Origin: a virus
Lineage: Duplodnaviria; Heunggongvirae; Uroviricota; Caudoviricetes
Strand: one strand, 5' to 3'
IMG/VR virus record: IMGVR_UViG_2778261447_000008
Coordinates: 1 to 13,187 of that record
DNA length: 13,187 bases
The notes under the pieces are model-generated. The model had not been told where the DNA came from. It ran no database searches and worked only from the letters and a program-made list of their open reading frames with translations. This document shows, one piece after another, positions 1,450 through 6,273 of this stretch; the first letter of the stretch is position 1, and every line of letters starts with the position of its first letter. The position numbers and the translations under genes are program-made.

Positions 1450-1909
1450 TTACCACCCCACCAGCCTCTTTAAATCGGGCAATCAGGTCACCGATTTTAT
1501 GTTCATACTGACCGTAACCTGCACCAGGTAACGACGCCCAGATATTGCTGCAACGGTCGATTGCCTGACGAATATCACCGCGATCAATCATCGGTAAAGC
1601 GCCACGCTCTTTAATCTGCTGCAATGCCACAGCATCCTGGCTTTTGGGAGAGAAGTCTTTCAGAGCAAGCTGCTTACGGTAGGCATCCCACCAGCGTGAA
1701 AGAAGCTGGTAACGTCCGGCGGCTGTTGATTTGAGTTTGGGGTTTAGCGTGACAAGTTTGCGAGGGTGATCGGAGTAATCAGTGAACAGTTTGCCACCAA
1801 CAATAACATCATAACCGTGGTTACGTGTCGGTTGTCGCCCGTTATCCGTTCCTTCTGACCAAGCCACCATATCAAGGAAAGCTTTACGCTGGGAATTTAG
1901 TACCTGCAT
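1433..1909 (-). CDS. R: endolysin, lambda R-type lytic transglycosylase
   Basis: The 158 aa translation is near-identical over most of its length to lambda R as I recall it (QRKAFLDM.AWSEGTDNGRQ.TRNHGYDVIVGG, GRYQLLSRWWDAYRKQL, DRCSNIWASLPGAGYGQ). Positioned between holin and Rz. Confidence 0.9.
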   Translation of the reverse strand: MQVLNSQRKAFLDMVAWSEGTDNGRQPTRNHGYDVIVGGKLFTDYSDHPRKLVTLNPKLKSTAAGRYQLLSRWWDAYRKQLALKDFSPKSQDAVALQQIKERGALPMIDRGDIRQAIDRCSNIWASLPGAGYGQYEHKIGDLIARFKEAGGVVNEVEL

Positions 1910-1912
1910 AAA

Positions 1913-2239
1913 TTACTCCTTAGAGCCACCAAATTTGTTACCGATTACTCGCATTGCAGCCCCACGAATAGCATCGACACCGATCAGCCCCACTCCACCA
2001 CCAATGGCAACAGATAGTGATTTAGGCCATCCGACATACTCAAGAGCGGATGCAAAAGTCAGCGTCAGAGCGCCACAGAGTAGAATTTCGAGTGTTTTTC
2101 GCTTCCAGCCACCACCACCGCCAAAATAGGCAATACGTAAACCAGCCATAACAATCGACATAATCACTGCGCCCAGCGGTGTGTCTCCACGCCACCAGCT
2201 CTGGACCAACTCCAACCAGGTATTTGGGTTATGAGGCAT
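1913..2239 (-). CDS. holin (three predicted transmembrane segments)
   Basis: 108 aa with three hydrophobic segments and a charged C-terminus. Stop lies 3 nt upstream of the endolysin start. First gene after a late-leader terminator. Confidence 0.7.
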   Translation of the reverse strand: MPHNPNTWLELVQSWWRGDTPLGAVIMSIVMAGLRIAYFGGGGGWKRKTLEILLCGALTLTFASALEYVGWPKSLSVAIGGGVGLIGVDAIRGAAMRVIGNKFGGSKE

Positions 2240-2377
2240 TTGTAGTTATCTCTCACCTCGCTGATACAGCAGGTGCAAATTGAGGAAACATCATGTACCG
2301 CAAATCAGAAGCGGAAACGTCAAAGAAGCCGAGTCAATGGATAACTGCGGGATAGGCCAGGACCAAGGAATCCCCAG

Positions 2378-2413
2378 ACCCAGAAACGACAAAACCCGCT
2401 CGATGGCGGGTTT
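2378..2413 (-). terminator. intrinsic terminator in the late leader (tR'-like), minus-strand sense
   Basis: Perfect 8-bp stem aaacccgc / gcgggttt (2392-2399 and 2406-2413) with a 6-nt loop. On the minus strand it is followed by ttttgtcgttt; the plus-strand side has only three T. Confidence 0.5.
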
Positions 2414-2420
2414 AAGCTGT

Positions 2421-2530
2421 GTGGCGAAGTGAGCACACTTAACAGATTACGATATTTTTTGCGTACGCGTTAGTGTTTTGATAGAATTTTCAGCCGCATA
2501 AAAATTCATTCTTATAATTCGGGATATATA
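2421..2530. promoter_or_regulatory. intergenic control region: candidate late promoter/qut on the minus strand and candidate cassette promoter on the plus strand
   Basis: Non-coding gap between the terminator hairpin and the cassette start. A perfect TATAAT lies at 2513-2518 (plus), 12 nt before the ATG at 2531, with no good -35. The minus-strand pR'-like hexamers could not be pinned down by eye. Confidence 0.3.
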
Positions 2531-3706
2531 ATGGATATAACTTGTTTAGAATGTGGCAATGTTCTTGACGACCCAACTGTAGCTTGCGATAAATGCGGTG
2601 CCACGCCTCATGTTGTAGTGCTGGGCAAACAATCGTACTTTCCTATTGGTGCTGTAACAGCAAATCTTGAAAAAAATGATTCAAGAGCATTTGATTATCG
2701 ATTAGGTGAAGTTTGGGATCTAAAAAATGAAGTCACATCTGAATTCATAACCAGAATTGAGAAAAAATTTAGCCGAAAAAACAAATTTCATAACTTCCTA
2801 GACTCAGATCACAACCCTTCATCCATTCCTACGATCCTAAAAAAATACATTAATAAAAATAATGAATTCATTGATTTATCTAGAGCTATAATAGAGAAGC
2901 TTAAACATAATGCTAATAACGAATCGAGAGTTGCCCAACTTCAGGGGGGGAGCGTTGTTTTCATCCACTATAAGTCTACCGAACCAGAGGATTTGGGGAA
3001 ACTTCTAATCGTAATGGTTGATAAACAAAGCGCCTATGACTTTGATTCGGATAAGTTGACCCCAACAAGATTAAATCCAATTAATACCGATGCCTTACGG
3101 CAGGCTGCGATGTTCGATTTAACTTTATTCGAAGCCAGTTATCCAGAAAACAAGGGTGACTCATATGTACATTTCTTGCAAGGTAAATCTAAAAGCGATT
3201 TTTTCAAAGACTCATTAGGTTGCCGACATGATTCGGACAATAAAAGAAGCATTCAGCAATTATTCAGTGCTATAGATATTTTTGCTAGTAAAAACTCACT
3301 CGGTCGTGTACTGCGTGATACTATTGACAATGAAGTTAAATCCTTACTGGAAAAAAAATCAAAAGATAAATACGGAAATAAGTCCGTTAAGATAGAGGAT
3401 ATTTCAAAAATAATTGACTCATGCCTGACTGATTCACACAAATGTAAGGGAACGTTTGTCGATTTTGTTAATCTTAATGGTTTCCAGATTGACCCTCAAT
3501 TTGAACCAACTCCTAAAGCAGCTGAAAGCGCGCTTACAATTGAAGTGGCAGATAACGACAATAATTTTAAGTTGAAAATAATGCGTGGAGCTATTGGAGA
3601 CGAAAAGTCAAATAAGCCTGTAATTCTCACTGACAACAAATGCGAAATTGTGATAAAATTGAGTCAGGCAAATTATGATGAACTCAAAAGATATAGAGAC
3701 AGCTAA
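2531..3706 (+). CDS. zinc-ribbon protein with NdpA/YejK (NA37)-like nucleoid-associated-protein region; first gene of AT-rich cargo cassette
   Basis: 391 aa. N-terminal Cys4 motif (CLECGN...CDKCG). The central region carries motifs I recognise from E. coli YejK/NdpA (GGSVVFIHY vs GGFVLFCHY; YVHFLQGKSKSDFFKDSLG vs [22 protein letters not shown]), recalled from memory. Very AT-rich. Confidence 0.6.
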   Translation: MDITCLECGNVLDDPTVACDKCGATPHVVVLGKQSYFPIGAVTANLEKNDSRAFDYRLGEVWDLKNEVTSEFITRIEKKFSRKNKFHNFLDSDHNPSSIPTILKKYINKNNEFIDLSRAIIEKLKHNANNESRVAQLQGGSVVFIHYKSTEPEDLGKLLIVMVDKQSAYDFDSDKLTPTRLNPINTDALRQAAMFDLTLFEASYPENKGDSYVHFLQGKSKSDFFKDSLGCRHDSDNKRSIQQLFSAIDIFASKNSLGRVLRDTIDNEVKSLLEKKSKDKYGNKSVKIEDISKIIDSCLTDSHKCKGTFVDFVNLNGFQIDPQFEPTPKAAESALTIEVADNDNNFKLKIMRGAIGDEKSNKPVILTDNKCEIVIKLSQANYDELKRYRDS

Positions 3707-3708
3707 TA

Positions 3709-4269
3709 ATGACAATTGCTGATGACTTATCAAGATTAGCGCAGATTATTAACGGAGCCTCAAGCAGAGTTGAGGGCTACTACACTGTCATAAGTCTTGA
3801 AGAAAGCATTGTTATTGTAAATAGTTCTGAAATAATTAGACTGTTACAATCTATAGGTTATAAAAAGGCAACAACCTGCATCGAAAATAATGAAATTTGG
3901 CTAGATCGCCAAGCTTCATCTTGGGATGACGCTATAATTTATGAGAATGTTGAGTCTTTTTGGTCTAGAGTAAACACCCAAAACGCTCTTCCGAAAAATT
4001 ATATCATCGGAACGCCGTTAATACTCCCTACTTCTAAGAATGAAAGCATCGAAAAAATCCATATTTTCTTTATGTGGAAAGATATCCTTTCATTAATTGC
4101 TGATCATCATAACAGTGACTGCTCTGTCTTATTTTTCACCAATGAAGACAAAAGTTATACAGTCGAACTCACGCATTTTTTACAATATAGCGAGATTAAT
4201 CGCTTATCGAACTCGTCTCTTAAATATGAAATTATAAAGGAGCTTCTCGACACAATAAAAAATCAATGA
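3709..4269 (+). CDS. hypothetical protein; second gene of cargo cassette
   Basis: 186 aa. The ATG overlaps the tandem stop codons of the upstream gene (taaTAATG), indicating translational coupling. AT-rich; no recognisable family. Confidence 0.55.
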   Translation: MTIADDLSRLAQIINGASSRVEGYYTVISLEESIVIVNSSEIIRLLQSIGYKKATTCIENNEIWLDRQASSWDDAIIYENVESFWSRVNTQNALPKNYIIGTPLILPTSKNESIEKIHIFFMWKDILSLIADHHNSDCSVLFFTNEDKSYTVELTHFLQYSEINRLSNSSLKYEIIKELLDTIKNQ

Positions 4270-4354
4270 TTTACACAAAAGCGAGCGCAAACTCGTTATA
4301 CGCTCAGCCATAAACGAAGTATTTAAAGCAAATGGTACGTTCAATTTCTTTGAC

Positions 4355-4924
4355 TTGCTTAACTCTACTGAACTCGTCAGGAAAAAATATGATGAACTAT
4401 ATGAGATTTACACAAAGAGGTTTTCTGTAAATAAAATTCTTAACGAACTCGATGAGAAAAATCTTGAGTTCACGAGTAAAATTAACGAATTCATATCATC
4501 TAATCAGACAAAAGCATTGACTATTCCCGGTGCATTAATAGCAGCTGGTGGCTTAGTGAAGGCTAATGAAACAACCGAAGCAATATTGATTATCGCAGGA
4601 CTTTGGATGATAAAAAAAGTCAATTACATTTCTATTGAGATATTCAATGAAACATTCGACAACTTACGTTCTCGAGTGGAGTCCGCTTTCGATAAGTATT
4701 TAAAGTTTGAAGAAAATAAAGAAATCAAAGATAATGCAGATAGTATTAAGAGTAGCATTACAGGTTTGATTGATAAAGCTAAAAAAAGGATGAGAACTGT
4801 TAAATATCTCGCATCAGCCATGTTTTATGGAGGCCTTATTTACGTTGGATATAAACAGTTCCCAGTCTTTTTTGAAAAATCGGCAGTAAATCTATTTTAT
4901 TTTTTATGCCATACTATAAGCTAA
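4355..4924 (+). CDS. small predicted membrane protein (two hydrophobic helices); third gene of cargo cassette; start codon uncertain
   Basis: 189-codon frame with hydrophobic segments ALTIPGALIAAGGLV...ILIIAGLWMI and YLASAMFYGGLIYVGY. The track start is TTG with no Shine-Dalgarno and there is no in-frame ATG before residue 84. A strong AGGA-N6-ATG at 4379-4391 is in another frame. The 3' end overlaps the Q 3' end by 21 bp. Confidence 0.45.
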   Translation: MLNSTELVRKKYDELYEIYTKRFSVNKILNELDEKNLEFTSKINEFISSNQTKALTIPGALIAAGGLVKANETTEAILIIAGLWMIKKVNYISIEIFNETFDNLRSRVESAFDKYLKFEENKEIKDNADSIKSSITGLIDKAKKRMRTVKYLASAMFYGGLIYVGYKQFPVFFEKSAVNLFYFLCHTIS

Positions 4925-5275
4925 CATTGCTAAACAGCCGTCAACAAACCCCATTGCAGTTTGCAGTTCCTTCCTAATTGTGCCATCAGAGCATTTTCTC
5001 TTCTTCGCAATAGTGCGTAATGAGATACCGATAACAAAGTGGGCGATGATGAGCTCATATTCCTCTGGTTTATACCTTCTCAACCGAGCCACACAACTGT
5101 CTATCATGATGCCTTCGTCATCATCACACTGAATCCGTGACTTTTTGCCATGAGGTAAAAGTCCCTTGAAACCAGCCGCTATCGGCTGCCAGTCCACTCC
5201 GCTATTGTCTGAAGCAGCCCAAGCTCCCCAACGATCCATTACTTCATACATATCACGCATCAACTTTCTCCACAA
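4904..5275 (-). CDS. Q: late-gene antiterminator Q (QuuD / phage-82-type)
   Basis: 123 aa with the motifs RWGAWAA, IAAGFKGL, KSRIQCDDD, C.ARL and CSDG.I.K.LQ that I recall from E. coli QuuD-type Q proteins. Last gene of the minus-strand early operon, upstream of the lysis genes. Confidence 0.8.
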   Translation of the reverse strand: MWRKLMRDMYEVMDRWGAWAASDNSGVDWQPIAAGFKGLLPHGKKSRIQCDDDEGIMIDSCVARLRRYKPEEYELIIAHFVIGISLRTIAKKRKCSDGTIRKELQTAMGFVDGCLAMLAYSMA

Positions 5276-5277
5276 AA

Positions 5278-6273
5278 TCAGGCCAGCACACCAATTGCCA
5301 GCGCACGATCGATAAAACGAAATATCAACTCCAGCTGGGAGCCATACTTCTCTTCAAATGCCACGGTATCCGCATGCAGCTCGTCGTGATGCTTTCTGCA
5401 CAAAGGCAACACAAAGAGATCATGCGCTTTTGTACCCATTCCCCCCTGACCGTGGCCTATCAGATGGTGGGGATCATCAGCAGGCTTTCCACAACATGCA
5501 CACGGCTGCGTCTTAACCCAGCGCGTGTACTTTTCATTAACCCAGCGGCGACGTTTTGGGCGTAACATAAAAGACTCCGGCGACTCCGGCTCCACTTTCA
5601 GCGCCAGCACCTTTTTCGCTTTATCCTGGATGATGCTGGTGGCAGGAACCGAAGGAACAAGGTCACTTTCCCGGGTGACAGACGGCACAACAGGCTTCGG
5701 TAATCTCAGTGCCTTACGGGCTGCACTTTCCGGTAAGGCATCCGCCAGGTCATTACGAACCAGCCACCAGCATAGTTCCGGCATTGTCACAACGTGACTA
5801 TCATCAAAACCGAGATCCCGACGCACAACAGACAATACCCAGCGGGCACAGTTATCCGTTGCCATTGATTCCAGCCGTTCCGTGAACTGATCGCGCAGCT
5901 GGTTATCGCAGTGCCAGCACAGACGGATTGCGCCCGGAGCGTGTCGCATTGTGGTCATGTTCTCGCTGTGCCAGTCGGAATGAGGCCACTGGCAGCCTTT
6001 TTCACGAAGTAACCAGCTTTCAAGACATTCCACCCCACCAGCACGACGGATCACTGTCTCATTGCGGAACACGGCCCGAACGGCAGGATCATCCGCCAGC
6101 GTTTGTGATGCCGCCGGAACGGCACCACTGGCAAAAGATGAATAACGTTCCGGCTCAGGCTCCAGCAGGACACGCCCCTGCATAAACAGGGGCATCAGCT
6201 CTGAACCTGGTCTGAACAATACGATCCCCATACGCGGGGCAATTTCAGGGGTCAGTAGCGCTCTCACGGTCAC
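5278..6273 (-). CDS. DUF968-family prophage protein with HNH-like Cys/His cluster (YdfU-like)
   Basis: 331 aa; the C-terminus carries CACCGKPADDPHHLIGHGQGG...CRKHHDELH. Typical nin-region position between KilA-N and Q. Tightly packed against both neighbours. Confidence 0.7.
   Translation of the reverse strand: MTVRALLTPEIAPRMGIVLFRPGSELMPLFMQGRVLLEPEPERYSSFASGAVPAASQTLADDPAVRAVFRNETVIRRAGGVECLESWLLREKGCQWPHSDWHSENMTTMRHAPGAIRLCWHCDNQLRDQFTERLESMATDNCARWVLSVVRRDLGFDDSHVVTMPELCWWLVRNDLADALPESAARKALRLPKPVVPSVTRESDLVPSVPATSIIQDKAKKVLALKVEPESPESFMLRPKRRRWVNEKYTRWVKTQPCACCGKPADDPHHLIGHGQGGMGTKAHDLFVLPLCRKHHDELHADTVAFEEKYGSQLELIFRFIDRALAIGVLA

Follow-up and report, generated by a model that had tools for sequence, protein, structure and literature searches.

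A known defence gene and its partner

We studied a stretch of 13,187 nucleotides (the window) from a virus of the class Caudoviricetes (IMG/VR record IMGVR_UViG_2778261447_000008), and in particular the open reading frame (ORF) at 2531-3706 on the + strand. This ORF is almost certainly DS-1A, the YejK/NA37-fold half of the two-gene anti-phage system DS-1. The other half, DS-1B, starts 2 nucleotides past the stop codon of DS-1A and carries a frameshift. As an overall explanation, we think it likely that the ORF is DS-1A of DS-1, that DS-1 works by a mechanism like that of the PANGU systems (described below), and that the cassette is probably inactive in the window if the frameshift is real. The features of the cassette are as follows.

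2531..3706, + strand: DS-1A, an ATG-to-stop ORF of 391 amino acids; matches NF053868 and phrog_3767 and is nearly identical to WP_000355468.1
2543..2596, + strand: Cys4 zinc-ribbon-like knuckles of DS-1A, C5, C8, C19, and C22 (CLEC...CDKC; MDITCLECGNVLDDPTVACDKCG), followed by a linker (residues 26-34)
2636..3700, + strand: NA37/YejK two-domain core of DS-1A, residues ~36-390, from Pfam, PHROG, Foldseek, and hhalign
3709..4269, + strand: N-terminal fragment of DS-1B, 186 amino acids; residues 1-184 match WP_000150292.1 exactly, and N-Q-stop comes next; NF053869 profile positions 1-143, 98.8 bits
4257..4262, + strand: A6 homopolymer, the frameshift site, with one extra A (A5 in intact copies)
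4262..4924, + strand: rest of DS-1B (residues 185-404), read in the +1 frame; conserved core motif and hydrophobic or transmembrane (TM) helices; no obvious start codon of its own
4355..4924, + strand: ORF within the remainder of DS-1B, 189 amino acids; NF053869 profile positions 175-337, 230.5 bits

The coordinates, the ATG start, and the length of 391 amino acids are exactly as the initial annotation had them. DS-1A scores 451.2 bits (E=2.5e-135) against the equivalog NF053868, whose cut-off is 330. This model is named 'DS1_1_antiphage', with the product name 'nucleoid-associated anti-phage protein', and the name traces to the DefensePredictor study (DeWeirdt et al., Science 2026; PMC13092281), whose newly validated defence domains include 'a YejK nucleoid-associated domain'. 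There, DS-1 (working identifier D390) lies at NZ_RRVY01000002.1 220602-222994 and consists of WP_000355468.1 (391 amino acids) and WP_000150292.1 (404 amino acids). The window has the same genes. Its DS-1A is identical to WP_000355468.1 at 390 of 391 residues (99.7%), with Y281 in place of H281 as the sole difference, and its DS-1B coding sequence is identical to the published one except for one inserted A: in a three-frame translation, residues 1-184 and 185-404 both equal the published protein, and the extra A joins them. Recent RefSeq annotations from the Prokaryotic Genome Annotation Pipeline (PGAP) name the pair 'nucleoid-associated anti-phage protein' and 'anti-phage protein'. It is because of the NF053868 score, the near-identity of DS-1A, the match of both parts of DS-1B to WP_000150292.1, and the PGAP names that we are so confident of the identification. 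The HHpred tables of the DefensePredictor study place NA37 at residues 42-382 of DS-1A and NinF/Zn_Beta_Ribbon (86%) at residues 3-26 (PMC13092281).

So the gene is already known: it has been published, it has a curated NCBIfam equivalog, and PGAP names it. The initial annotation took it for a phage cargo gene in an unusual context. It is indeed cargo, in a prophage, between the genes for antiterminator Q and the holin, and with a published system, a PGAP name, and an equivalog, the gene is no unrecognised oddity. The value of the locus as a discovery is small, as DS-1 was validated in a 2026 Science paper, the NCBIfam models are curated, the RefSeq names are in use, and a preprint describes a mechanism for the class.

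On a low-copy plasmid and with its native promoter, DS-1 protects E. coli MG1655, and the result was replicated (listed as replicated = TRUE in Table S7 of PMC13092281). In terms of -log10 efficiency of plating (EOP), the same table gives 7.6 for Bas1, 2.7 for Bas26 (with small plaques), 1.7 for Bas3, 1.7 for T3, 1.0 for T5, and 0.9 for T7; for SECphi27, the EOP was not reduced and the plaques were only smaller (PMC13092281). Bas01 is a T1-like phage of the Drexlerviridae and Bas26 is a T5-like phage of the Markadamsvirinae (PMC8594841). This resistance was measured for the intact allele.

To place the pair in a wider context, we scanned the species genomes of GTDB with a profile of the DS-1A family, which gave 16 loci, and ran tblastn for DS-1B homologues at each. 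These loci are from Pseudescherichia, Pseudomonas, Stutzerimonas, Oceanimonas, Marinospirillum, Aliidiomarina, Thalassotalea, Pseudoalteromonas, Marinomonas, Vogesella, and Halioglobus. At all 16 of these distant loci, a DS-1B homologue lies directly downstream of DS-1A and on the same strand (E from 1e-12 to 9e-86). Given this adjacency and the 2-nucleotide spacing in the window, DS-1A and DS-1B are a real two-gene unit, and the constancy of the pairing supports the idea that they are a sensor and its effector.

Might DS-1A instead be a phage protein that regulates or organises the DNA of the prophage or the host, with no role as an immune sensor? PHROGs files it under DNA metabolism (phrog_3767 matches residues 36-390), and the NA37 family does occur on other mobile elements and phages, such as NdpA2 on the integrative and conjugative element PAPI-1 and the NA37 proteins of Pseudomonas F116-like phages. 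The latter two are said to be regulators or nucleoid proteins rather than proteins of defence. They are about 20% identical to DS-1A, over 66-71% of its length. When we searched 50,697 phage genomes, we did not find the cassette in any of them; the search returned only distant NA37 genes (~20% identity, E~1e-7) from the Pseudomonas phages H66, F116, LKA5, phiC725A, and PseuP_224 (H46-H59), which are temperate and whose genes are annotated as nucleoid-associated protein or yejK. The absence of the cassette from phage genomes argues against such a role, as does the obligate pairing with a membrane protein at 16 of 16 loci. A nearly identical two-gene unit, cloned alone in MG1655, gave replicated anti-phage defence. 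The published plaque assays largely refute the idea of a prophage nucleoid protein, and we consider it highly improbable.

The YejK fold, the zinc ribbon, and a possible mechanism

DS-1A has the same two-domain fold as E. coli YejK (also known as NdpA; PDB 9be2), and the two share the motif blocks GG.V.F.HY and Y..FL.G...DFF.D.LG. Both blocks had been recognised in the initial annotation. They are present in the translation as GGSVVFIHY and YVHFLQGKSKSDFFKDSLG, with 4 residues between the G and DFF rather than the 6 that it gave. The Pfam model for NA37 (PF04245) matches DS-1A at 84.2 bits (gathering score 24.6; E=1.4e-23), across residues 64-376 of the protein and positions 27-318 of the 325 in the profile. 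A phmmer search of the PDB sequences with DS-1A as the query returns YejK (9be2_A, E=1.3e-9) and nothing else, and hhalign of a 25-sequence profile of the DS-1A family against YejK from E. coli K-12 gives a probability of 98%. An AlphaFold2 (AF2) model of DS-1A, built on the alignment from this profile, has a predicted local distance difference test (pLDDT) score of 83.8 and a predicted template modelling (pTM) score of 0.73. When the model is compared to the PDB with Foldseek, 9be2 is the sole match with E<=0.001 (E=4.2e-15, probability 1.0). The global TM-score between the two is just 0.41-0.47, with a high root-mean-square deviation, which is consistent with the domains being oriented differently in the model than in 9be2. 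The profile search and the structural comparison thus bear out the kinship with NA37 that had been proposed, and the resemblance of the motifs is not due to chance.

Nevertheless, DS-1A is not the orthologue of YejK. It belongs to a paralogous family, as its score against the YejK equivalog NF001557 (80.7 bits) is far below the cut-off of 341. The two proteins are about 20% identical, and DS-1A has a Cys4 ribbon and a linker that YejK lacks. Also, YejK is encoded by a standalone housekeeping gene on the chromosome, whereas DS-1A is prophage cargo with an obligate membrane partner.

The initial annotation noted the four N-terminal cysteines (C5, C8, C19, and C22) and proposed a fused zinc ribbon. 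All four cysteines are in the translation. Pfam models of zinc ribbons match the N-terminus weakly (E=0.07-0.28), and AF2 has low confidence in residues 1-34, with a pLDDT of 55-70 for the ribbon and of <50 for the linker. Among 88 clusters of full-length DS-1A homologues, 48 have CxxC...CxxC within the first 60 residues, and there the four cysteines are invariant, even at identities as low as about 35-41%. In the remaining 40 clusters the ribbon is absent; they have an acidic low-complexity tail in its place, as in Pseudomonas-type members, or nothing. Some of these ribbon-less proteins (e.g., P0063, P0095, and P0110) score above the DS-1A equivalog cut-off and have kept the partner gene, so the ribbon cannot be the core sensor. 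From these sequence comparisons, the ribbon appears to be a selected accessory that is restricted to one clade, an optional appendage that neither forms the core of the system nor defines the family.

We also examined the partner. Pfam identifies no domain in window DS-1B or in any of 69 clusters of its homologues. The N-terminal ~184 residues are acidic (net charge -9, isoelectric point (pI) 4.9), and 26 of 27 homologues have a negative net charge in this domain (median across homologues -7). A basic region (pI 9.3) makes up the last 139 residues, and hydrophobic segments lie at about 268-309 and 372-392. In an AF2 model (pLDDT 84.3), residues 1-185 form an alpha/beta domain, and long helices follow. 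DS-1B is a membrane protein with an acidic soluble N-domain, a highly conserved central helix motif, and hydrophobic helices at its C-terminus.

This architecture resembles that of the PANGU systems, which are described in a recent preprint (bioRxiv 10.64898/2026.04.06.716658). In these two-gene operons, a YejK-like protein occupies the nucleoid and is freed when phage nucleases degrade the chromosome; the freed protein then binds and activates an effector via the effector's acidic, DNA-mimicking domain, and abortive infection results. In type II PANGU, the nucleoid-associated protein is Pag2A and the effector, Pag2B, has an N-terminal acidic domain ('DMK') and a C-terminal TM domain. The E. 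coli example of type II, PANGU-Ecu, requires both genes and was assayed against T4 under induction with isopropyl beta-D-1-thiogalactopyranoside. Pag2A binds the DMK domain with a dissociation constant of 19 nM, a fusion of Pag2A to green fluorescent protein exits the nucleoid during T4 infection, and T4 escapes via mutations in the nuclease gene denA (10.64898/2026.04.06.716658).

DS-1 has the type II layout, in that it is a two-gene operon that encodes a YejK-like protein and an effector with an acidic N-domain and a C-terminal TM region; it is similarly a bicistronic operon of E. coli, with defence that is probably of the abortive-infection type. Because of this shared architecture, a PANGU-like mechanism is the best supported one for DS-1, and by analogy we lean somewhat towards it. 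A dimer of DS-1A would clamp long double-stranded DNA of the chromosome non-specifically, as YejK does. Phage degradation of the host chromosome would free DS-1A, which would then bind the acidic, DNA-mimicking N-domain of DS-1B. This would switch on the membrane effector, and the infected cell would no longer support phage growth (abortive infection). The Cys4 ribbon at the N-terminus would be a clade-specific accessory. T5, T7, and T3 are classic degraders of host DNA, so the host range of DS-1 fits a model of this kind. A sensing role, which the initial annotation suggested, fits both the defence by DS-1 (PMC13092281) and the sensors in the preprint, but in the published model what is sensed is the loss of host DNA, not foreign nucleic acid.

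In its crystal structure, YejK is an asymmetric dimeric clamp with an electropositive pore of 30 Å; it binds double-stranded DNA without sequence preference and with higher affinity for longer DNA, and the mutants R173A/R176A/K177A and R276A/R280A/K284A have lost binding (PMC11229321). In our alignment, the hydrophobic residues of the dimerisation hairpin are retained in DS-1A (I135 of YejK corresponds to L176, P to P178, and Y140 to L181), and the monomer model of DS-1A includes predicted C-terminal beta-hairpins and a terminal helix.

Several observations weigh against a PANGU-like mechanism for DS-1. By hhalign, just 1 of the 6 basic residues that line the pore of YejK is kept in position in DS-1A (R176, as K219), and P328, E332, and T336 stand where YejK has R276, R280, and K284. 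(R173 falls in a 3-residue deletion of DS-1A, K221 and K226 are close to K219, and many DS-1A homologues have K at the position of R280.) With most of the pore residues not conserved in position, it is uncertain that DS-1A binds DNA. DS-1B has no more than a mildly acidic N-domain, with a net charge of -9 over 184 amino acids. PANGU-Ecu was reported to be active against T4, and T4 is not among the phages that DS-1 is recorded to restrict (Bas1, Bas3, Bas26, T3, T5, and T7). The preprint nowhere mentions a zinc ribbon for Pag2A, and it is by architecture that we liken DS-1 to Pag2A and Pag2B. Finally, the main text of the DefensePredictor paper gives no mechanism for DS-1, and the paper reports no single-gene deletions (PMC13092281).

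Some of the same evidence could be taken to mean that DS-1A senses the phage directly, that is, that its ribbon or its clamp or both recognise phage DNA (injected or replicating) or a phage protein and then activate DS-1B, with degradation of the host genome being irrelevant. The poor conservation of the YejK pore residues would fit this, and the strict conservation of the Cys4 ribbon within its clade suggests a specific ligand. DS-1 also has a narrow and very uneven host range, from 10^7.6-fold protection against Bas1 to about 10-fold against T5 and T7. On the other hand, the 40 of 88 family clusters that lack the ribbon are above the DS-1A equivalog cut-off and have kept DS-1B, and the only mechanistic data on YejK-like defence proteins indicate release from the host nucleoid. 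Direct sensing seems rather unlikely to us.

The frameshift in DS-1B

The initial annotation missed both DS-1B and its frameshift. The A-run is A5 in 8 of 8 comparator loci and A6 in the window, and the extra A creates the stop codon TGA at 4267-4269 (N-Q-TGA). An intact DS-1B that matches NF053869 is not present downstream of DS-1A in the window: the gene at 3709-4924 is split, and both fragments fall below the cut-off of 315 for this model, as compared to 375 bits for the intact protein (P0111). With the truncation, DS-1B loses D187 and R193, its near-invariant core (KYDELYEIYTKRFSVNKILNELDEKNLEFTSKINEFISSNQTKALTIPGALIA), and every one of its hydrophobic helices.

The frameshift is private to the window sequence. 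Besides the A5 runs of the comparators, a genome contig (L021) is 99.97% identical to the window over 11.6 kb, with the extra A as a single gap; and the exact DS-1A allele of the window is present in 436 index blocks, and in all six of the places shown, the adjacent DS-1B is intact, with 404 amino acids. Either a recent mutation has inactivated the gene, or the extra A is an error in sequencing the homopolymer. If it is real, then the cassette in the window is probably inactive, judging from what the truncation removes. A functional DS-1 in this genome would hinge on the extra A being a sequencing error, and we would give it even chances at best.

If the extra A is real, it is unlikely that the frameshifted DS-1B is rescued, as the downstream frame has no Met before M299 and a -1 slip would enter the wrong frame. 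We considered programmed frameshifting at A AAA AAT and rejected it as unlikely: a -1 slip there leads to the wrong frame and an early stop, restoring DS-1B requires a +1 shift, and for transcriptional slippage a run of six A's is short.

A bleaker view of the locus is that the cassette in the window is a decaying pseudogene pair, with DS-1A as an effector-less orphan that has no current function. The truncation ahead of D187, R193, the conserved core, and all of the hydrophobic helices, and the scores of the fragments (98.8 and 230.5 bits, where NF053869 requires 315), would be expected of a dead remnant, and other E. coli copies of the cassette also have lesions. PK12 (L025 5732-6908) has a frameshift in DS-1A, so it does not share the lesion of the window; NZ_OZ547033.1 (H16) has IS1 inserted inside DS-1A; and at least 5 of 60 sampled E. 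coli cassette records (including H89, H111, H122, and H126) have split annotations or lengths that are off by 1-2 nucleotides. These lesions suggest either that the cassette has decayed repeatedly or that homopolymer errors arise in its AT-rich sequence. However, the lesion in the window is a single homopolymer base, and as the only gap in 11.6 kb relative to a genome that is 99.97% identical, it is typical of an error in sequencing or assembly. Also, DS-1A is intact and is one residue away from the validated allele. We regard a dead remnant as a serious possibility, though not the favoured one. In either case, the window holds a copy of DS-1 with a frameshifted effector gene, which is relevant when scoring the defence-system content of this genome.

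A degraded pair may also exist far from E. coli. In a metagenome-assembled genome of Halioglobus (L018 6001-7532), a shortened DS-1A-like ORF (197 amino acids) is followed by a shortened DS-1B-like ORF (285 amino acids), which is possibly a degraded copy of the cassette.

We also considered whether DS-1 differs from a simple type II PANGU system. The Cys4 module of the ribbon-bearing enterobacterial clade might provide a second input or cover the DNA clamp as an autoinhibitory lid, which might explain the uneven host range. In the window, because the frameshift falls exactly at the boundary of the N-domain, it would free a soluble N-domain of DS-1B, which could titrate DS-1A as a natural 'off' state. 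We consider these ideas quite improbable.

The prophage and the distribution of the cassette

The window comes from a lambdoid prophage of E. coli or Shigella, of which it represents the early-right and lysis region, and outside of the cassette it is 96-98% identical to phages of the SfIV, SfV, SfII, and PhiR29 types. Between Q and the holin gene, DS-1 occupies the + strand, antisense to the flanking genes, and has a GC content of 33-37%, as compared to 48-57% for the flanks. DS-1A and DS-1B form a cargo ('moron') cassette of low GC content in a lambdoid prophage of E. coli. The features that border the cassette are as follows.

4904..5275, - strand: antiterminator Q (PF06530, E=3e-47), convergent with DS-1B; the 3' ends of the two genes overlap by 21 nucleotides
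2478..2505, + strand: promoter-like sequence (TTGATA-16-AAAAAT) on the cassette's left edge, from a consensus scan only; the count of such sites is not above the shuffled expectation
2392..2413, - strand: strong terminator-like GC hairpin and T tract (predicted) between the cassette and the holin gene, on the strand of the late genes; also in SfIV
1913..2239, - strand: lambda-family holin (TIGR01594, E=1.8e-35), the first gene of the lysis cassette

The other genes on the - strand of the window are those of the cI/Cro side and of replication, along with genes for PerC-like, Dam, LexA-like, RusA, KilA-N, and DUF968/HNH proteins, the lysin, and Rz.

SfIV does not have DS-1. By blastn, its homology to the window ends at 2479 and restarts only at 5151, within Q, so the C-terminal part of Q (two-thirds of it) differs together with the cargo. 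In the slot that corresponds to 2480-4900 of the window, SfIV (L001 2147-4066) has a different pair of genes on the + strand, along with IS1. These are SfIV_49 (356 amino acids, phrog_3482) and SfIV_48 (108 amino acids, hydrophobic), and neither has a match in PADLOC or NCBIfam. They may be another module of a soluble protein and a membrane protein in a cargo hotspot. PADLOC-DB 2023 has no model for DS-1A, for DS-1B, or for these SfIV cargo genes; the database is older than the DS-1 paper, so this absence is uninformative. In a prophage of the DLP12 type (PEC403), the block in common with the window is 1497-5296, which comprises the lysin, the holin, DS-1, and Q. The backbone of the prophage in the window is SfIV/HK97-like, whereas it is DLP12-like in many of the other genomes that bear the cassette.

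Of 5426 complete E. coli genomes, 106 have the cassette at 99% identity or above and at the same Q-proximal position in a prophage; O104:H4 and O103:H2 strains are among them. DS-1A is also found, at 92-99.7% identity, on three records that are classed as plasmids (H61-H63): two from E. coli, of 35 kb and 64 kb, and one of 316 kb from K. pneumoniae. In the 64-kb record, a Q gene adjoins DS-1A, and this record may be a phage-plasmid or a misassigned prophage.

The window has a second cargo ORF of low GC content (38-41%) on the + strand, at 267-893, with another at 50-223; they lie between the Rz gene and the terminase side. The ORF at 267-893 matches phrog_12494 and nothing in Pfam, NCBIfam, or PADLOC. 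In prophages of the DLP12 type, iss/bor is found beyond the lysis genes.

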